NCBI GenBank assembly: GCA_041481365.1
Contig: JBGPBS010000001.1
Coordinates: forward strand, 13,063-77,062
Source: Candidatus Bathyarchaeia archaeon
GTDB taxonomy: Archaea; Thermoproteota; Bathyarchaeia; Bathyarchaeales; Bathycorpusculaceae
DNA length: 64,000 bases
Direction: 5' to 3'
Positions 5,625 to 46,800 of this stretch are shown piece after piece (position 1 is the first letter of the stretch; each line of letters begins with the position of its first letter). A program made the position numbers and the translations under genes. The notes beneath the pieces are model-generated. The model saw nothing but the letters and a program-made list of their open reading frames with translations. It searched no databases and had not been told where the DNA came from.

Positions 5625-6245
5625 ATGCGAGATAAAGCGTCGCCCAGCGAATACCTTGCGTTTCTCTCTGTGAAGTATGAGGTCGATGCTGACGAGTTCT
5701 TCGAAGCATTAGTGTCAGCTGGCAAGAATCACAGATCTACATGCGGGACTCTTTCGATCGAATGCAGGCACAAGCAGGCGGAGAGTGTCATGCTTCTGAT
5801 AACGGTGGGGTCGAAGGTTGTGGCGCAGTTTCCGATCTCAACGGAGTTTTTGTTGAACGAAGATAACCCAATCAAGAATATGATCAGGGCGAGTTTTCTC
5901 TGCAGACGTCTTGTCAAGAAGGATGGCGATCGACGCTTGTTTCAGATCAAAGACCTGCATATCGGCATGAAATGTGTCAGCTTGAAGGCTGAGGTCGTTG
6001 AAGTGTCGGACACCTCGTTCGTCACGACAAGGTTTGGGAATTATGCCAGCGTCGCCAACGCGTTAATATCCGATGAGACTGGGAAGATCAAATTATGCCT
6101 GTGGAACGAGCAGATAAAGTCCGTGTCCGTGGGTGACACCGTTCAGGTTGAGAACGCCAGAATATCTGCGTTCAGAGGGGAGAAGCAGCTGAGAGTCGGC
6201 AGAAACGGGAATCTCCGCACCCTCCGAAACGTCGTTGCCACCTAA
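5625..6245 (+). CDS. OB-fold single-stranded DNA-binding protein (crenarchaeal SSB-like) with a novel N-terminal ~100-aa domain
   Basis: The C-terminal half ISDETGKIKLCLWNEQIKSVSVGDTVQVENARISAFRGEKQLRVGRNGNL closely resembles my recollection of the Sulfolobus SSB core ([50 protein letters not shown]). Confidence 0.7.
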   Translation: MRDKASPSEYLAFLSVKYEVDADEFFEALVSAGKNHRSTCGTLSIECRHKQAESVMLLITVGSKVVAQFPISTEFLLNEDNPIKNMIRASFLCRRLVKKDGDRRLFQIKDLHIGMKCVSLKAEVVEVSDTSFVTTRFGNYASVANALISDETGKIKLCLWNEQIKSVSVGDTVQVENARISAFRGEKQLRVGRNGNLRTLRNVVAT

Positions 6246-6537
6246 TGATTGAGTATTGAGTGCCTTTTTCCCCAGCTTGCGGTCCGGTTGAACAGAACGA
6301 GTTTTGAACGTTGAAGCATGATTTTCAACACTGCTGGAACGCGGAGATTCTGATAATCTAGCTGTGGTTTAGCAGGTTGGAGACCGCCTAAAAATACATC
6401 CCCCATCGGTTTTTTCGGCCTCTAGCATGTTTTCATGCGGCCACGCATTGCGTCAGTGCATTGTCACCGTTTTGTTATTGCCCGTGGAGTGTGGTAGTGA
6501 CGAGTCCTAAGATTGTGGTTCTAGTGGTGAGTTGGTT

Positions 6538-9003
6538 TCATGCTTTCGTATTTGGCCTATATAGTATGAGTTTTGCGATTTCTCGCCAGATGATGGTCAG
6601 GAGAGCGAAGCCGAAGATTACGACGAGCTGGCTTGCCGTGAGTGTTGAGAGTCTGAGCTGATTGCCCACTGGAGGCACGGCGACCGCGATGAGTAGGAAG
6701 GAGAATGCAAGGACTGCCCACAGATCCATTACCTTGTTCGACAGGGGGCCAAGGATGTAGAGCGGTTCTCTTTCTGAACGTGTGACGAAAGCGAGGATTA
6801 TGTGTCCCATTATCCAAGCCGAGAACGCGTAAGTTTGTATCTCAATTGGCGAAAGGCCTTGCCACCACGCGTAGAAGTATGCGAGCATAACGGCCGCAAA
6901 GAGGCTTGCCGCCGATATTGCGAGGTCTGTTATCATCTTCGAATCGGGGAACTTTGCTTTGGGGTCTCTTGGCTTTCGACCATAGATCGTCTTTTCTGCG
7001 GGTTCAGTGACGAATCCGGCGGAAGCGGCGAGATCCATGAATAGTTCCAGGACGATTATCTGTATCGGGGCAAAGGGTAGAGGCATTGCAGGGTAAAGAT
7101 ATTGCAGACCCAGGGAGAAGACGAATAGTGAGATCAGAGCAGCTTTTATGCCCAAGTAATATTTGAGCCCTTTTCTGAGATTATCAAAGAACGTGCGGCC
7201 TTCAAAGACCGCGCGTCCAATGGTCACAAAATTATCATCAGTCAACACGACGTCTGCCGCTTCCTTAGCCGCGTCGGTGCCCTTTGTGCCCATCGCGATG
7301 CCGACATCTGCCCCTTTGAGGGCCAGCGTATCGTTGACACCGTCTCCGGTGACAGCGACGATTTCGTTGTTTGCATGCAGCGCCTTCACCAATCGATACT
7401 TGTCCTCAGGCGCAGTCCTTGCAAAGACGGAGACCTCCTTCACTACTTTCTTCAGTTCCTCGTCAGAGAACCTCTGAAGCTCCTCACCGGTCAGCACCTT
7501 CTCCGAGGCGATGCCGACGCTCTTTGCGATGTAGGCGGCCGTCTGGGGATGATCACCCGTGACCATGATCGTCCTAATCCCCGCCTTGTTGATTGCCTCT
7601 ATGGTTTCCTTGACGCCTTTCCGCGGAGGATCTTCAATCGAGACCAGTCCGACGAACTCCCAGTCTTCCTCCAAGTCTGCAAAGGGCAGATCTGTTTCTT
7701 CAGCAGCGACCGCTCTCTCCGCAACGCCAATTACTCTTCTTCCTTTCGCTGTTTCCTCTTTGAGCTCTTCGTCAAAAAGCCCACCGCTGCCCAATGAGCT
7801 TAGAATCTCCTCGGGCGCTCCGATGGTCGAAAGCCTGAAACCGTCGTTGTTCACGCGTAGGACCGCCTTGGTCCGTTTGTTAGTCTCAAAACCGCGTTCG
7901 CGAACGATGCTTCCGAAACTCGTTTTGACTCCGAGTTCCTGGGCTTTGGCCAGAATTGCCTTGTCAGTTGGTGACAGTGACATTTCAGTCAAGGCAGCAG
8001 CAGCCGCACCAAGCGCTCTGGCCTCTTCCTTTCTTGGATAAACTTGAACAACTTGCATCTTGTTCTCAGTGATCGTTCCTGTCTTGTCAGTAACGATGAC
8101 GGTTGTGTCACCCAGAACTTCTGCAGCCTTGAGTTTCTTTACCAAAAAACCTTTCTTCGAGAGCCTATAGGAGCCCAATCCCAATATCATCGTGATTATG
8201 ATTGGCAATTCCTCAGGAATTGCAGCAAAGGCAAGTGCTAGTCCTATCAGAATCAGTTCTTTATCTCGGCTCAGATCTTGGTACCCAAAGTGTAGGATGC
8301 CAATAGCCGGTATGATTACGCTGAAGAATATGGCGACATAAGCAAGCGTTTTCGAGAGTTTCTTCATTGACAATTGCAGAGGTGTCTTCGGGGGTTTGAT
8401 CATTTGAGCCATCGCGGAAATCTTGCCGAATCTGGTGTTCTTGCCAGTGGCGTACGCTTCCCCTTTTCCCTCGCCAAAAACCACCAAGGTCCCAGCATAG
8501 ACGCCATTTCCAACGGTCTTTTCTTTGGGAAGAGATTCGCCTGTCAAAACAGACTCATCAACTTGAATGTCGTAGGCCACGCCAAGTTGGCAGTCGGCGG
8601 CGATTCTTGTGCCCTCAGTGAAAACGAGGAGGTCCCCAGGAACCACTTTCTCAGTTTCAACCTCAACTATTACACCGTCCCGCACAACTCGGGTCTTGGG
8701 GGCTGCCAGCACAGAAAGCGCAGATATGGCTTTCTTGGCGCGATATTCGTTCCAAATCTCGACAAAAACCAGCACGAAAATAATGCTGAAAATGGTCAAG
8801 GCATCTTGCAGACTCCCGAAAACCGTGTAAAACACACCTACGACAAGGAGAAGCAGGATCATGGGTTCAACAACTTCTTCCTTCGCGATACCGAGAAAAC
8901 TAACCGTGTAAGGCTTGGAAAGCTGGTTCGGTCCAACCTCTAACAACCTCTTTTCAGCCTCGATTTCAGAAAGCCCTTTTGGCTCCTTGCCCGAACCCTG
9001 CAT
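6538..9003 (-). CDS. Cation-transporting P-type ATPase (type II-like; substrate not assignable)
   Basis: 821 aa. Phosphorylation site VTDKTGTITENKM, hinge VTGDGVNDTLALK, M4 motif IPEELPIIIT, TGES actuator motif. Confidence 0.88.
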   Translation of the reverse strand: MQGSGKEPKGLSEIEAEKRLLEVGPNQLSKPYTVSFLGIAKEEVVEPMILLLLVVGVFYTVFGSLQDALTIFSIIFVLVFVEIWNEYRAKKAISALSVLAAPKTRVVRDGVIVEVETEKVVPGDLLVFTEGTRIAADCQLGVAYDIQVDESVLTGESLPKEKTVGNGVYAGTLVVFGEGKGEAYATGKNTRFGKISAMAQMIKPPKTPLQLSMKKLSKTLAYVAIFFSVIIPAIGILHFGYQDLSRDKELILIGLALAFAAIPEELPIIITMILGLGSYRLSKKGFLVKKLKAAEVLGDTTVIVTDKTGTITENKMQVVQVYPRKEEARALGAAAAALTEMSLSPTDKAILAKAQELGVKTSFGSIVRERGFETNKRTKAVLRVNNDGFRLSTIGAPEEILSSLGSGGLFDEELKEETAKGRRVIGVAERAVAAEETDLPFADLEEDWEFVGLVSIEDPPRKGVKETIEAINKAGIRTIMVTGDHPQTAAYIAKSVGIASEKVLTGEELQRFSDEELKKVVKEVSVFARTAPEDKYRLVKALHANNEIVAVTGDGVNDTLALKGADVGIAMGTKGTDAAKEAADVVLTDDNFVTIGRAVFEGRTFFDNLRKGLKYYLGIKAALISLFVFSLGLQYLYPAMPLPFAPIQIIVLELFMDLAASAGFVTEPAEKTIYGRKPRDPKAKFPDSKMITDLAISAASLFAAVMLAYFYAWWQGLSPIEIQTYAFSAWIMGHIILAFVTRSEREPLYILGPLSNKVMDLWAVLAFSFLLIAVAVPPVGNQLRLSTLTASQLVVIFGFALLTIIWREIAKLILYRPNTKA

Positions 9004-11464: not shown

Positions 11465-13882
11465 TTAATCTTCGCTTCTCTTTCCGCCTTCCAAGAGGAA
11501 TTGTGGGAATGCTTTGAGTTTTTCCGCCATTTCCTTGAGGCGTTCGTCCACTTTGAAGTTCACGGTTCCTTCTTCGAAGGTTCCATCTTTTCGTCGTTCG
11601 CCCGCTTTGATTCCAGTTAAGACTTCTATTCCTTCGTCGATGGTCTTGACGGAGTAGATGTGGAATTTCCCCTTTTTGACAGCGTCTACTATTTCCTCCT
11701 TCAGCATCAGGTTCTGCACGTTGCTTTCAGGTATCATTGCTCCTTGTTTACCAGTGAATCCCTTGGCTTTGCAGACTTCAAAGAATCCTTCGATTTTTTC
11801 GTTCACGCCGCCTATGGCTTGAACTTCGCCTTTCTGATTTACGGAACCTGTCACGGCAAGGCTTTGTTTTATCGGAAGGCCAGAGAGTATAGATAGGATA
11901 GCGTAGAGTTCGGTGCTTGAGGCACTGTCGCCCTCTACTCCCTCGTAGTTCTGTTCAAAAACAAGTCGGGCTGAGAGGCTAAGAGGCCTGTCCTGTGCGT
12001 ACTTCTCGTTCAGGTATCCGCTTAGAATCAGAACCCCTTTGGTGTGTATCGGCCCGCCCATTTGAGCTTCCCTTTCAATATCAATAACTCCCTCTCGACC
12101 CAAGCCAACGCTGACTGTTACGCGTGAAGGAGTGCCAAACTCAAAGTCGCCCAGGCTGATAACTGAAAGGCCGTTCACCTGCCCGACGTTCTCAGCGTCT
12201 GTGTCGATAAGGAGAATTCCTCTTTGGATCATTTCTTGAATCTTATCTTGTATGAGTTTTGAGCGGTAAATCTTCTCTTCCAAAGCTTTTTTCACGTGAT
12301 CTCCCGTTACGAATTCTGAGTTCTCTTCGGTAGCATAGAAGCTAGCCTCGCGGACAACGTCAGCGACTTCGGCGAACCTGGTCGAGAGTTTCTGCTGGTC
12401 CTCAGCCAGTCTTGAACTGTGTTCGATCAACTTGGCCAAGCCCGACCCATCAAGGTGTTTAAGGTTCTCCTTCTGGCAGAGTGAGCAAACGAAGGCCGCA
12501 TATTGTTGCATGTTTTCTTCCGTCCGATCCATGGTCGTGTCGAAGTCCGCCTTCACTTTGAAGAGTTCGTTAAATTCCATGTCCAAGACGTAAAGTTGCT
12601 GATAGAGATACGGGTCCCCGATGATGATCACCTTGACGCTCAGTGGGATAGGCTGGGGTTTCAAGCTCTTGGTCGTAATGAAGCCTAAACGTTCTTCCAC
12701 TTCTTCGATGCTGATCTGCTCGTTTCTGAGAGCTCTTTTCAAACCGTCGTAGGAGAATGGATTGCGAAGCAATTCTTCGATTGGAAGAATCAGATATCCA
12801 CCGTTGGCCTTGTGCAATGATCCTCCGCGGATCATGGTGAAGTCGGTGACAAGGGCGCCAAACTGTGCTTCCTTCTCGACTCTGCCAAAAAGGTTCTGAT
12901 AGGTGGGGTTAAATTCCGTTGTTACTGGGGCTCCCTTAATGTCCGAGTTATCGGCAACAACGTTTACCTCATATTTCTTGAAGGGAATCTCTCTGCTCCA
13001 AGGAATTTGAAAGGGGGCTTGCGGTTCAGCTTCAGCTCCTTTTATGAAATGAGAGAGGTTATCCAGAATGTCGCTTTGCACGCTTTTCAGGTAGTCAGCG
13101 ACGTCTGGAATGTCCTTGTATTTCTCAGCGAGATCTGCGACCAAGTGGCCGATAGAGTAAAGGGCAACGTCACGGTTTAGTTTTTCAAGTTCCTGATGGA
13201 TCTTCCTCTCCATGTCTGAGAATTGTCTCATGGCATTTCGCAGGTCTGATTCCAATAGTTCCCTTTTTTGTTGAATCTCCGCCTTGGTTTTCGGAGGTAA
13301 GTTCATGAACTCTGCATCGTTGATGGGTTTACCCTTTATCACCGGGATGATGAGAAATCCAACAGGCGTGCTTTGGATGATGAAACCTTGACTTTGGGCT
13401 TTAACGTTGATCTGATCGATGAGCTGCTTTCTTTGATTTTCCAGCTCTTCTAATGTTGTTTCTTTCTTCTTGGCGTAGTCTTCACTTTCAAACGCTTTCG
13501 GAAGGGTTCTTCTGGTTTCCTCGACAAATTTTTTCATGTCTGTTTTGAATTCTTTGCCTCTGCCTGGAGGTAGCCTAATTGCCTTCGGTTCATACTGGTT
13601 AGAGAAGTTGTTCACGTAGCACCAGTCAAAGGGGACCGGTTTCTCTCTTGCCATTTCTTCGAGGAAACCCTTGACGGCTGTTGTTCTGCCAGTTCCTGGA
13701 TAGCCCGCGACGTAAATGTTGAACCCGCGTTCTTTGATGCCTAGGCCGAACTTGAGCGCTCTAACGGCCCTTTTCTGACCGACTATCTCTCGGAGAGGCG
13801 ATATTCCTTGTGTGGTTTCACATTGTATGAGATTAGAGGAACATTCCTTCCTCAGCTTTTCTGCGGGCAACTCGGTTACCAT
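11465..13882 (-). CDS. Lon-related protease, soluble, with a degenerate AAA module (LonC-like)
   Basis: C-terminal Lon protease domain with catalytic Ser context EGDSASSTELYAILS and Lys context GVNEKIEGF. N-terminal P-loop reads GYPGTGRTT (Arg where the Walker A Lys is expected). I saw no TM helices. A long helical insertion lies between them. The ATG at 13882 is preferred; the ORF track starts at a TTG at 13891. Confidence 0.82.
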   Translation of the reverse strand: MVTELPAEKLRKECSSNLIQCETTQGISPLREIVGQKRAVRALKFGLGIKERGFNIYVAGYPGTGRTTAVKGFLEEMAREKPVPFDWCYVNNFSNQYEPKAIRLPPGRGKEFKTDMKKFVEETRRTLPKAFESEDYAKKKETTLEELENQRKQLIDQINVKAQSQGFIIQSTPVGFLIIPVIKGKPINDAEFMNLPPKTKAEIQQKRELLESDLRNAMRQFSDMERKIHQELEKLNRDVALYSIGHLVADLAEKYKDIPDVADYLKSVQSDILDNLSHFIKGAEAEPQAPFQIPWSREIPFKKYEVNVVADNSDIKGAPVTTEFNPTYQNLFGRVEKEAQFGALVTDFTMIRGGSLHKANGGYLILPIEELLRNPFSYDGLKRALRNEQISIEEVEERLGFITTKSLKPQPIPLSVKVIIIGDPYLYQQLYVLDMEFNELFKVKADFDTTMDRTEENMQQYAAFVCSLCQKENLKHLDGSGLAKLIEHSSRLAEDQQKLSTRFAEVADVVREASFYATEENSEFVTGDHVKKALEEKIYRSKLIQDKIQEMIQRGILLIDTDAENVGQVNGLSVISLGDFEFGTPSRVTVSVGLGREGVIDIEREAQMGGPIHTKGVLILSGYLNEKYAQDRPLSLSARLVFEQNYEGVEGDSASSTELYAILSILSGLPIKQSLAVTGSVNQKGEVQAIGGVNEKIEGFFEVCKAKGFTGKQGAMIPESNVQNLMLKEEIVDAVKKGKFHIYSVKTIDEGIEVLTGIKAGERRKDGTFEEGTVNFKVDERLKEMAEKLKAFPQFLLEGGKRSED

Positions 13883-43672: not shown

Positions 43673-43831
43673 TCATTTCTTGACAAACTGATCTTTTGGA
43701 GCCCCGCACAAAGGGCATGTCCAATCTTCAGGCACGTTCTCAAAAGGTGTTCCAGGCTTTATCCCGTGCTCTGGGTCGCCTACATCTGGATCATAGATGT
43801 AACCACAAATTGTGCATTCCCATTTATCCAA
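43673..43831 (-). CDS. Rubredoxin (52 aa, TTG start, below the ORF-track cutoff)
   Basis: My translation: (M)[51 protein letters not shown]. Both CxxCG knuckles are canonical. There is no in-frame ATG. Confidence 0.85.
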
Positions 43832-44370: not shown

Positions 44371-44535
44371 CTATTTCGTCTTCTTTTTCTTTCTCTCTCT
44401 GTATCGTTCTGCGCATTGCTCGCAGCAGAACAAGTACTGCTTTCCATCGACTACTGTGCTGTAGGCCGCAAGTCTGCATGTTTCTGAAGGAATCTCAGAC
44501 TTGCAGAATTCGCATCGGACAAATTCGGGCATCAT
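44371..44535 (-). CDS. TRASH/zinc-finger-like mini-protein translationally coupled to iscU (54 aa)
   Basis: My translation: MMPEFVRCEFCKSEIPSETCRLAAYSTVVDGKQYLFCCEQCAERYRERKKKKTK. The ATG overlaps the iscU stop (ATGA). Confidence 0.65.
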   Translation of the reverse strand: MMPEFVRCEFCKSEIPSETCRLAAYSTVVDGKQYLFCCEQCAERYRERKKKKTK

Positions 44536-44915
44536 TTCTTCACCTCTCTCTGCCTCTTGTGATAGTCTTCAATTGCTGCGTGCAACGCATCTGCAGCAAG
44601 GTTTGAGCAGTGCATTTTAATCGGCGGCAAACCGCCTAGAGAATCAGCCACGCTTGCGCGCGTGATCTTCATCGCCTCTTCCAACGTTTTTCCCTTAGCA
44701 ATCTCCGTCACCATGCTGCTGGTTGCAACGGCCGCGCCGCACCCGAAAGTCTTGAACTTGATGTCATCGATACGATTATCCTTGACTTTGATATAGATCG
44801 TCATCATGTCTCCACAAACAGGGTTTCCAACGGTGCCTATGCCATCTGCATCTGGGATTTCTCCCATGTTTCGGGGGTTTCTGAAGTGATCCATAACCTT
44901 TTCGGTATACATCAT
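44532..44915 (-). CDS. iscU: Fe-S cluster assembly scaffold IscU/NifU-like
   Basis: GNPVCGDMM, FKTFGCGAAVA, HCSNLAADAL: the three conserved Cys contexts. Confidence 0.92.
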   Translation of the reverse strand: MMYTEKVMDHFRNPRNMGEIPDADGIGTVGNPVCGDMMTIYIKVKDNRIDDIKFKTFGCGAAVATSSMVTEIAKGKTLEEAMKITRASVADSLGGLPPIKMHCSNLAADALHAAIEDYHKRQREVKK

Positions 44916-46126
44916 CCATTCAGCTCCTTCGGCGTCAACGGGGACATTGCCCTCAGCCTCTTAACGATTCCAGGCATTAAGCCTATTACGTAGTCAACTT
45001 CTTCTTCAGTGTTGTCCTTACCTAAAGAAAACATGAGTGACCCGTGAGCCTCTTCATGTTTGAGACCCATTGCCAGAAGCACATGGGATGGTTCCAACGT
45101 TTTCGCAGTGCATGCTGAACCTGATGAGGCGGCAACTCCCATCATGTCTAGACTGAGCAGCATCGATTCTCCTTCGATGAAGTTGTACCGCACAGAAACA
45201 TTGTTTGGCAACCGTTTGGTCGAGTGTCCATTCAGGAACGAACAGGGTATTGGCTCAAGCAGACCTTTGATCATTCTGTCTCTAAGCCTTAGGAGCCGCG
45301 CACTTTCGACTTGCATTTCTTTGCTTGCGATTTCAGCTGCCTTTCCGAACCCAACTATGCTTGGCAAGTTTTCGGTTCCTGATCTGACGCCTCGTTCTTG
45401 TCCGCCGCCGTGTAGTATTGGCTCAACGCGTATCCCCTCCTTGATGTAAAGCGCTCCCACTCCTTTCGGTCCATACATGTCGTTGGAGGAGAGCGAAAGC
45501 AGATCGATGCCGTCGTTCTTCACATCTATTGGAATTTGTCCGTTTGCCACGGTTGCATCAACATGTAGGTAAGCGTTCTTGCTGTGCACAATCTTGCTGA
45601 TTTCTTTTATTGGTTCAACTGTTCCGATTTCGCCGTTTGCGTACACTATTGTGACTAACGTAGTCTTGTCGGTGAGCTCCCCTTCCAACGTTTCGAGGCT
45701 GACGATGCCACAGTCGTCTACTGGAATAAAGATGACTTCGAAGCCCCTCGTAGTCAGGAATTTGCAAGGGTTAACGACTGACATGTGCTCGACACTCGAG
45801 GTCACAATGCGTGTTCCATGATCCCTATAACGAAGGCAAACGCCTTTGATCGCTAGGTTGTTGCTTTCAGTTGCGCCTGAAGTGAAAATGACGGATTCTC
45901 TCTTTTCCGCGCCGATTAGCCGTGCAACTTTCGCTCTGGCATCTTCGAGGGCTTTCAGGGCTTCTTGACCGAAAGTGTGCAGTGATGATGGGTTGCCATA
46001 AAATGATTGCATAACAGGCAACATCTCTTCCACGACTCGGGCGTCGACCGGTTTCCCCGCTGAATAATCCATGTAAACGCGTTTCTGAGTCGGCATCGTT
46101 ACCCACTCTCGCAGTTTCTTTATCAT
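44912..46126 (-). CDS. iscS: IscS/NifS-family cysteine desulfurase homologue lacking the PLP-binding lysine
   Basis: Collinear with IscS, and the catalytic loop SSGSACTAKTLEPSHVL is present. The PLP site SGHKIYGPKG instead reads SSNDMYGPKG (Asp codon GAC at 45479-45481). Confidence 0.88.
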   Translation of the reverse strand: MIKKLREWVTMPTQKRVYMDYSAGKPVDARVVEEMLPVMQSFYGNPSSLHTFGQEALKALEDARAKVARLIGAEKRESVIFTSGATESNNLAIKGVCLRYRDHGTRIVTSSVEHMSVVNPCKFLTTRGFEVIFIPVDDCGIVSLETLEGELTDKTTLVTIVYANGEIGTVEPIKEISKIVHSKNAYLHVDATVANGQIPIDVKNDGIDLLSLSSNDMYGPKGVGALYIKEGIRVEPILHGGGQERGVRSGTENLPSIVGFGKAAEIASKEMQVESARLLRLRDRMIKGLLEPIPCSFLNGHSTKRLPNNVSVRYNFIEGESMLLSLDMMGVAASSGSACTAKTLEPSHVLLAMGLKHEEAHGSLMFSLGKDNTEEEVDYVIGLMPGIVKRLRAMSPLTPKELNG

Positions 46127-46359
46127 TTCACCTTTCTAATCAATATGCGAACTGCATTCCCGTCTTTGCTTATGCTCACTATTTCTTGCTCCAGGTTTTT
46201 TACGAGGCTCTTTATGTCTTCTTCTGCAGCCGGATCATCGGCCAAAACTTCAAGGATTTCGCCTTTCTTCAATTCATCCAGCTCCATTCTGGTTTTGAAC
46301 ACGGGCTCTGGGCAGTACAAACCGAGGCAGTCTAATTTTCTGTTAGGTTTGGCTGCCAC
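46123..46359 (-). CDS. tusA: TusA/SirA-family sulfur carrier protein
   Basis: LDCLGLYCPEPVFKTR (CPxP motif); 78 aa; ATGA overlap with iscS. Confidence 0.85.
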   Translation of the reverse strand: MAAKPNRKLDCLGLYCPEPVFKTRMELDELKKGEILEVLADDPAAEEDIKSLVKNLEQEIVSISKDGNAVRILIRKVK

Positions 46360-46488: not shown

Positions 46489-46800
46489 TCAAGTTTTGAT
46501 TTTTATTGCCTGAGTTGGACACTGTGTTTCGCAAGCCAAGCACTGAATGCAGTCTTTTTCCCTTGCTGGATCAGACTTCTTTTGGGAAGTCGGGTGTCCT
46601 GGCGAATCGGCCCAGTCAAACAATGTAACCGGGCAAACTTCGATGCAAATGCCGTCTCCAGTGCAGACCTCCCAGTCAACTGCCACGTTTGTTCCATGAA
46701 TTCCCAGTTTTTTGGGAGGTTCAACAGGTCCCCACACGTCGTGCCCATTGTGCTGGCCAACCACTTTTCGACTCTTTTGGAAATCAGGATCGATCGGCAA
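46489..46800 (-). CDS. zfx: Zinc-containing dicluster ferredoxin (Sulfolobus/Thermoplasma type)
   Basis: 103 aa. The N-terminal extension VVGQHNGHDVWGPVEPPKKLGIHGT carries the three His zinc ligands. Clusters CTGDGICIEVCP and CIQCLACETQCP. Confidence 0.88.
   Translation of the reverse strand: MPIDPDFQKSRKVVGQHNGHDVWGPVEPPKKLGIHGTNVAVDWEVCTGDGICIEVCPVTLFDWADSPGHPTSQKKSDPAREKDCIQCLACETQCPTQAIKIKT

Follow-up and report, generated by a model that had tools for sequence, protein, structure and literature searches.

Organization of the locus

We analyzed a 64,000-nucleotide stretch of DNA, referred to throughout as the window (positions 13,063 to 77,062 of contig JBGPBS010000001.1, assembly GCA_041481365.1), from a Candidatus Bathyarchaeia archaeon whose source genome is a 1.63-Mb metagenome-assembled genome (MAG) of 127 contigs, estimated to be 93% complete. 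The window carries an iscS-like gene, located between tusA and iscU, whose product has an aspartate in place of the lysine that forms the Schiff base with pyridoxal phosphate (PLP) in cysteine desulfurases (Table 1). Variants of this kind have so far been treated as a peculiarity of Archaeoglobus fulgidus, whose lysine-to-aspartate proteins are labeled "exceptional" in a 2024 preprint. The sequence comparisons reported here indicate that these proteins have had their desulfurase active site taken apart in a coordinated manner across the clade, while the loop cysteine, the IscU and TusA partners, and the fold are retained.

Table 1. Features of the iscS locus, in window coordinates
Feature	Position	Strand	Details
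iscS-like gene, lysine-less (Asp) clade	44912..46126	minus	404 aa; PF00266 E 2e-75; best PDB match 4eb5_A
Codons AAC GAC (Asn215-Asp216)	45479..45484	minus	positions of E. coli His205-Lys206 (Schiff-base lysine)
Val193	45548..45550	minus	position of E. coli Gln183 (hydrogen bond to PLP phenolate oxygen); MAFFT alignment
Met365	45032..45034	minus	position of E. coli Arg354 (carboxylate anchor for cysteine substrate); MAFFT alignment
Cys339 (TGC), SSGSAC loop	45110..45112	minus	equals E. coli Cys328
tusA	46123..46359	minus	78-aa sulfur carrier; CPxP cysteine (LYCPEP, Cys16); Pfam PF01206 E 2.9e-23
iscU	44532..44915	minus	127-aa scaffold; PF01592 E 1e-49
TRASH/YHS-type Cys-rich mini-protein	44371..44535	minus	54 aa; last cistron; weak Pfam matches zf-FCS/YHS/TRASH
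Ferredoxin	46489..46800	minus	103 aa; Fer4 families; 129 nt upstream of tusA; context

Active-site residues

The PF00266 match spans positions 1 to 371 of the window IscS, which has the class V aminotransferase fold, and the similarity to Escherichia coli IscS (PDB 1p3w; E = 1e-102) is that of a type I cysteine desulfurase (IscS/NifS). The E. coli reference was taken from NC_000913, and residues were mapped with MAFFT and are given in E. coli numbering. In this alignment Lys206 is replaced by Asp, His205 by Asn, Gln183 by Val, Asn155 by Gly, and Arg354 by Met, and Thr76, His104, Asp180, Ser203, Thr243, and Cys328 are retained. The window motif reads DLLSLSSNDMYGPKG, and SFSGHKIYGPKG of E. coli IscS corresponds to SLSSNDMYGPKG in the window protein. 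The initial annotation of this DNA, which was made from the sequence alone, had placed an aspartate at the Schiff-base position and an asparagine at the preceding histidine; MAFFT, HMMER, and a DNA-pattern search that independently recovered the aspartate codon (GAC, 45479 to 45481) all bear this out, and aspartate also occupies the Schiff-base column when the A. fulgidus sequence is included. A misaligned lysine was ruled out, since HMMER and MAFFT agree and the motif is devoid of any lysine.

The loss is not confined to that lysine. In E. coli IscS, mutagenesis has shown His104, Asp180, Gln183, Lys206, and Cys328 to be indispensable, and the substrate cysteine is held at its carboxylate by Arg354 (PMC9978102). 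Because Gln183 and Arg354 are also replaced, the window protein has lost, in addition to the Schiff-base lysine, another essential contact to PLP as well as its anchor for the substrate. Of the residues expected in a type I cysteine desulfurase, the lysine, Gln183, His205, and Arg354 are therefore missing, whereas His104, Asp180, and Cys328 are in place. The initial annotation had described the rest of the protein as intact, which holds for the SSGSAC loop but not for Gln183, Asn155, and Arg354; likewise, the remaining PLP contacts are kept in part, with Thr243 and the ring and phosphate contacts His104, Asp180, Thr76, and Ser203 still present, and Gln183 and His205 changed.

Among proteins of solved structure, the closest is A. 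fulgidus IscS2 (PDB 4eb5, 4eb7, and 4hvk; E = 5.6e-140, with 56.1% identity over 378 residues), and the next PDB match is its own D199K mutant (4R5F). In the HMMER alignment, ISSNDIYGPKG of 4eb5_A aligns column for column with the window motif and contains the same SSND; across a 12-site signature, the window protein reads T-H-G-D-V-S-S-N-D-T-C-M and 4eb5 reads T-H-N-D-A-S-S-N-D-S-C-L. The window locus has every sequence feature of the A. fulgidus type, namely, Asp206, Asn205, a small residue at 183, a residue other than Arg at 354, the loop cysteine, an adjoining intact iscU, and a place in the same clade, so that the proposal of a shared Lys-to-Asp (and His-to-Asn) variant is upheld. A. fulgidus IscS has no covalent PLP-lysine linkage and no desulfurase activity; it crystallized with pyridoxamine phosphate (PMP) when alone, and PLP was modeled in its complex with IscU (PMC8918507). 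It supplies a cysteine ligand to the cluster on IscU (PMC8918507, PMC7585200). The initial annotation described the A. fulgidus protein as inactive yet able to form a complex with IscU, in agreement with these reviews, but its statement that the protein binds no PLP was too strong in view of the PMP and PLP in the structures (PMC8918507).

A conserved lysine-less clade

A search of 1.84 billion cluster representatives led to a first tree of 192 sequences, in which a single clade (support, 99), lysine-less in every member, unites the window protein and its Bathyarchaeia orthologues with A. fulgidus IscS and others, including one Odinarchaeum representative. In a second tree, built from 309 sequences with seven trait columns masked, a 64-row clade (support, 95; both supports are FastTree values and not bootstraps) is exclusively lysine-less, includes the A. 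fulgidus protein, and draws its members from Bathyarchaeia, Halobacteriota, Asgard archaea, and Actinomycetota MAGs. To our knowledge, A. fulgidus IscS1 and IscS2 are the sole studied representatives of this branch. A few lysine-less IscS proteins fall elsewhere in the tree, for example, one from Aminicenantes with Gln at the position, and the lysine must therefore have been lost more than once. The matches listed in a wider locus census were mostly bacterial lysine-bearing IscS proteins, and the examples include Thorarchaeota, Actinomycetota, and Aminicenantes.

Within the clade, the replacements are made in concert. Among 58 distinct sequences of the aspartate type (D-type), Lys206 is Asp in all 58, His205 is Asn in 57, and Gln183 is Ala or Val in 56; Arg at 354 is found in none, and Cys328 is retained in every one. 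The closest database homologues of the window protein are 78 to 99% identical to it, with source names of Bathyarchaeia or Bathyarchaeota. A motif-anchored count of the 120 closest metagenomic homologues (P0001 to P0120) gave SSND in 70, SSNN in 44, SSNG in 1, and lysine in none; unlike these homologues, the GTDB genomes sampled showed no asparagine at position 206. Deeper members of the clade carry Ser, Ala, or Pro, and given that Asn and Gly also occur, aspartate itself is evidently not strictly required.

The lysine-to-aspartate state was surveyed across archaea. Orthologues with 58 to 87% identity were present in 17 of the 41 genomes of the order, all with Asp and nearly all in the gene order tusA-iscS-iscU-TRASH. 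At one locus (L027, G012:C16:40567-41738), the orthologue is split into open reading frames (ORFs) of 245 and 147 aa by either a frameshift or an assembly error. The DNA pattern for S-S-N-[D/N]-x-Y-G-P-K-G was found in at least 108 of 401 Bathyarchaeia species genomes, representing 45 of 131 genera, and in at least 41 of 151 Asgard genomes, and a reversed control pattern gave no matches in either group; these genome counts are lower bounds, since some members deviate from the exact pattern and go undetected. Among 301 Halobacteriota genomes, SSND was read in every one of the 30 best matches to A. fulgidus IscS (54 to 100% identity).

The ratio of nonsynonymous to synonymous substitution rates (dN/dS) between the window gene and five same-genus or same-family orthologues was 0.05 to 0.10. 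The window iscS is under purifying selection and, in line with the initial annotation, is not a pseudogene. The reading that the gene is decaying or is an artifact of assembly, for which the lost catalytic residues are the only argument, has virtually no chance of being correct; it was rejected on the basis of the dN/dS values and the conservation of the motif across the Bathyarchaeia and Asgard genomes with no control matches, and the stretch itself is present in many independent sediment metagenomes.

It can also be envisioned that the protein is still an enzyme, which holds PLP or PMP noncovalently for a different reaction, such as transamination or the handling of persulfides or cysteine derivatives. 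The retention of His104, Asp180, Thr76, Ser203, and Thr243 and the PMP in the A. fulgidus crystals (PMC8918507) would fit such a role. However, loss of the substrate Arg and of the Gln extends across the clade, the residue at the lysine position drifts to Asn, Ser, Ala, Pro, and Gly, and neither A. fulgidus IscS nor its D199K variant was reported to be active (PMC8918507); we regard this explanation as highly improbable.

Operon structure and linkage to tusA and dsrE

Neighboring genes were counted at all loci fetched, on the same strand and within 1.5 kb, for 58 distinct D-type and 82 lysine-bearing iscS genes. A tusA neighbor was found at 51 of the 58 D-type loci (88%) but at only 2 of the 82 lysine-bearing loci (2%; Fisher p = 7e-28, uncorrected for phylogeny), and the corresponding counts were 37 and 0 for a DsrE-family gene (PF02635), 55 and 55 for iscU, and 20 (in Bathyarchaeia and some Halobacteriota) and 0 for the TRASH ORF. 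The CPxP cysteine (Cys16) is invariant in all 55 TusA proteins encoded beside these IscS genes, and the single DsrE cysteine is retained in 36 of 37. The sample's only lysine-type loci with a tusA neighbor (L026 and L028, from G038 and G035, two genomes of the order) have a long iscU of approximately 220 aa and tusA downstream. We found no publication on tusA-dsrE-iscS-iscU linkage in the literature searched, although one may exist.

In many Bathyarchaeia, including some congeners, a DsrE-family gene of approximately 120 aa lies between tusA and iscS (e.g., L013:647-1015, L017:292-660, and L054:2621-2989). By tblastn, no dsrE-like gene was found anywhere in the window genome, and it is also absent from three congeners (G001, G002, and G004). 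In A. fulgidus (L165 and L166; G217:C1:161000-169000 and 508500-516500), the AF0186 locus has the order tusA-dsrE-iscS1-iscU1, whereas the AF0564 locus, which encodes the crystallized IscS2, has a truncated dsrE and no tusA. The AF0564-type locus looks like a partial duplication, which bears on the published experiments conducted with iscS2U2 only.

In the window, tusA, iscS, iscU, and the TRASH ORF follow one another with every successive pair overlapping: one ATGA joins the tusA stop to the iscS start, another joins the iscS stop to the iscU start, and the iscU stop overlaps the start of the TRASH ORF. AGGTGA lies 4 nt upstream of the first iscS ATG. In most orthologues, the start codon corresponds to Met11 (46094 to 46096), and in two congeners stop codons precede that position; a start at Met11 (394 aa) would leave a 30-nt gap to tusA in place of the overlap. 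Of the overlaps behind the translational coupling proposed in the initial annotation, that of iscS and iscU is real, whereas that with tusA, which is real at the first ATG, hinges on the choice of start codon. IscU is intact, with equivalents of the cluster ligands and residues Cys37, Asp39, Cys63, Lys103, His105, and Cys106, and iscS and iscU are predicted to be cotranscribed; the iscS gene was found in no RNA run searched.

The ferredoxin gene keeps its position upstream of tusA in five congeners (G001 to G004 and G006), and in G005 only a fragment of it is visible, at the edge of the locus. A rubredoxin gene (43673 to 43831) lies downstream of the TRASH ORF, and the positions of both the rubredoxin and ferredoxin genes are kept in several genomes of the genus. 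Given these positions, the conserved block may be longer than four genes.

Other Fe-S cluster assembly genes in the genome

SufB/D (PF01458) was found in none of the seven genomes of the genus (G000 to G006), which include the window genome and two that are nearly closed, although this search detected PF01458 in 14 of 14 control genomes. Among the 41 genomes of the order, 9 have SufB/D, 17 have a D-type IscS, and none has both (hypergeometric P = 0.004, uncorrected for phylogeny). Searches of the window genome by tblastn with E. coli HscB, IscA, IscX, Fdx, SufA, SufE, SufB, and SufD, a method of limited sensitivity, found none of them at E <= 1e-4, and the match to HscA was a generic Hsp70.

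A second operon lies outside the window on contig C67 (positions 5767 to 7891; L002/L004) and contains an IscS-like gene, iscU2, and sufS, a trio that is conserved across the order. In the IscS-like protein, which forms a clade of its own (support, 100), Lys206 is retained alongside the replacements His104Pro, Gln183Asp, His205Tyr, Thr243Val, and Arg354Leu. IscU2 (168 aa) has all cluster ligands and a C-terminal extension of approximately 40 aa. The sufS gene is interrupted by the contig end; SufS of the congeners is complete, with 12 of 12 canonical residues checked being present. The C67 IscS-like protein may be a second kind of degenerate IscS beside a real desulfurase. Canonical lysine-bearing IscS occurs in some genomes of the order but not in the window genus, and the TusA-IscS-IscU module is one of only two iron-sulfur (Fe-S) assembly systems in this SufB/D-less genus.

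A further class V aminotransferase frame of 277 aa, on contig C43 (6728 to 7561; L003), covers profile positions 97 to 371 only; its lysine is present, and a desulfurase-type cysteine loop is absent. The N-terminal part may sit in another frame or be missing.

Proposed route of sulfur delivery

The functioning of minimal IscSU systems that have no sulfur-mobilizing enzyme is an acknowledged open question (PMC8918507; preprint 10.1101/2024.03.20.586028). The linkage of the variant to tusA and iscU hints at how a lysine-less IscS might still aid in the building of Fe-S clusters. We propose, with a probability of roughly 0.7, that the window protein is a member of a monophyletic lysine-less group of type I IscS/NifS proteins in which PLP chemistry has been replaced by a TusA-borne persulfide relay to Cys339 and IscU. 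By analogy with A. fulgidus, the window IscS would not desulfurate cysteine but would form an (IscS-IscU)2 complex, in which Cys339 would be the fourth ligand or handover point for the nascent [2Fe-2S] cluster. Gene linkage suggests that the co-encoded TusA would deliver protein-bound persulfide or sulfane sulfur to Cys339 and IscU, that the DsrE-like protein would be a further sulfur carrier in most relatives, and that this relay would substitute for the lost PLP step. The ultimate source of the sulfur may be environmental sulfide or polysulfide, or cysteine by way of SufS of the second operon; the upstream ferredoxin is a candidate electron donor, and the TRASH mini-protein is a candidate metal donor.

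Several observations weigh against this proposal. Through the retained ring and phosphate contacts, a PLP or PMP cofactor may still bind for some purpose. The linkage statistics do not take phylogeny into account, and the TusA-linked members are known from their genes alone. The absence of tusA and of an intact dsrE from the locus of the crystallized A. fulgidus IscS2 implies that a relay is not needed for complex formation, and the dsrE-like gene is gone from the window genome and three of its congeners. Furthermore, TusA could equally be a sulfur acceptor or act in another pathway, and direct use of sulfide is possible.

Sulfide was the explanation favored in the initial annotation. In a model of this kind, IscS would serve only as a structural partner of IscU and a source of its cysteine ligand, free sulfide of the anoxic habitat would be inserted directly, and TusA would be there for an unrelated thiolation. 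This model was put forward for A. fulgidus IscS (PMC8918507), it suits a genome recovered from sediment metagenomes, and the SUF-like minimal (SMS) systems of anaerobic archaea do use sulfide. However, in a reported complementation test of E. coli, A. fulgidus iscS2U2 failed despite the addition of Na2S (preprint 10.1101/2024.03.20.586028), a canonical SufS is present in the genus, and the difference in tusA linkage between D-type and lysine-bearing loci is hard to reconcile with an unrelated TusA. The model leaves the TusA/DsrE linkage unexplained. We consider sulfide insertion of this kind unlikely; the near-obligate linkage to tusA and dsrE favors a protein persulfide relay over, or alongside, free sulfide.

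In E. coli, TusA is the partner of IscS in tRNA thiolation and in molybdenum cofactor synthesis. One could therefore postulate a module that, like IscS-TusA of E. coli, hands on sulfur by way of TusA, either to tRNA or to molybdopterin or some other thio-cofactor, and that has no part in Fe-S assembly. This we judge to be very unlikely: an IscS that is incapable of forming a persulfide cannot be the donor there, an IscU with its full set of ligands adjoins at nearly all D-type loci, with overlapping genes in the window, and in a genus without SufB/D the IscU systems must build the clusters.

If the persulfide relay is generalized, lysine-less IscS with TusA, and usually a DsrE-like protein, may constitute a distinct and widespread PLP-independent route of Fe-S assembly, in which the relay loads the loop cysteine and IscU and which is able to replace SufBC or SMS. 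TusA and DsrE would then be the components missing from the failed iscS2U2 complementation, the construct for which was without them because the AF0564 locus is. We advance this broader proposal tentatively, at somewhat short of even odds; if it is true, the route would be present in approximately a quarter of Bathyarchaeia and Asgard species, in many Halobacteriota, and in some Actinomycetota.

Comparison with known systems

The kind of lysine-less IscS described here was already known; what goes beyond the initial annotation is its clade-wide linkage to TusA and DsrE, its wide distribution, and a genus that lacks SufB/D but carries a second degenerate iscS-iscU pair ahead of a canonical sufS. 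Both Bathyarchaeia and Asgard archaea commonly have the variant, which is nearly always encoded beside TusA and often DsrE. The window copy, from an uncultured archaeon of sediments whose genome lacks SufBC, is likewise conserved and subject to purifying selection.

Judged by its sequence, the window protein belongs with the lysine-less IscS proteins of the A. fulgidus type and places them in a new phylum. Like A. fulgidus IscS2 and IscS1 (AF0564 and AF0186; PDB 4EB5, 4EB7, and 4HVK), it falls in the same clade, carries SSND, has lost Gln183 and Arg354, keeps the cysteine loop, and is followed by iscU, and as in the AF0186 locus, which has dsrE as well, tusA lies upstream. Unlike A. fulgidus, the window host belongs to the Bathyarchaeia (Thermoproteota), its tusA abuts iscS with no intervening dsrE-like gene, a TRASH mini-protein gene follows iscU, and the genome lacks SufB/D, whereas A. 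fulgidus has SufCB. The absence of dsrE, the added TRASH cistron, and a genome without SufBC are local peculiarities of the window locus.

The window system shares with E. coli IscS-IscU-TusA (PDB 1P3W, 3LVL, and 3LVJ) the fold of IscS (47% identity), the cysteine loop, and both partner families. In E. coli, however, IscS uses PLP to produce the persulfide enzymatically and then hands it on to TusA or IscU; with this enzyme chemistry gone from the window system, sulfur there probably moves between TusA and IscS in the opposite direction. The two-gene IscS-IscU core is also found in the minimal iron-sulfur (MIS) systems (MisS-MisU, or IscSU*) of anaerobic archaea, such as IscSU1 to IscSU3 of Methanosarcina acetivorans. 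M. acetivorans IscS1 likewise has no lysine and is the only lysine-less case beyond A. fulgidus that we found mentioned in the literature. As far as the tblastn searches show, the window genome has an IscS-IscU pair without chaperones or A-type carriers, as MIS systems do; however, MIS is defined by an active cysteine desulfurase, and the window branch, having lost the catalytic residues, lacks one and has TusA and DsrE as extra conserved components. Going by its residues, then, the window protein is not an active type I cysteine desulfurase and hence not a MisS as currently defined.

The adjoining genes for TusA, with its CPxP cysteine, and for a DsrE-family protein with a single conserved cysteine are reminiscent of the TusA-DsrE persulfide and thiosulfonate relays (Dsr and sHdr) of sulfur oxidizers. 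Those relays feed dissimilatory sulfur oxidation, whereas the genes described here are joined to an Fe-S scaffold operon in anaerobes.

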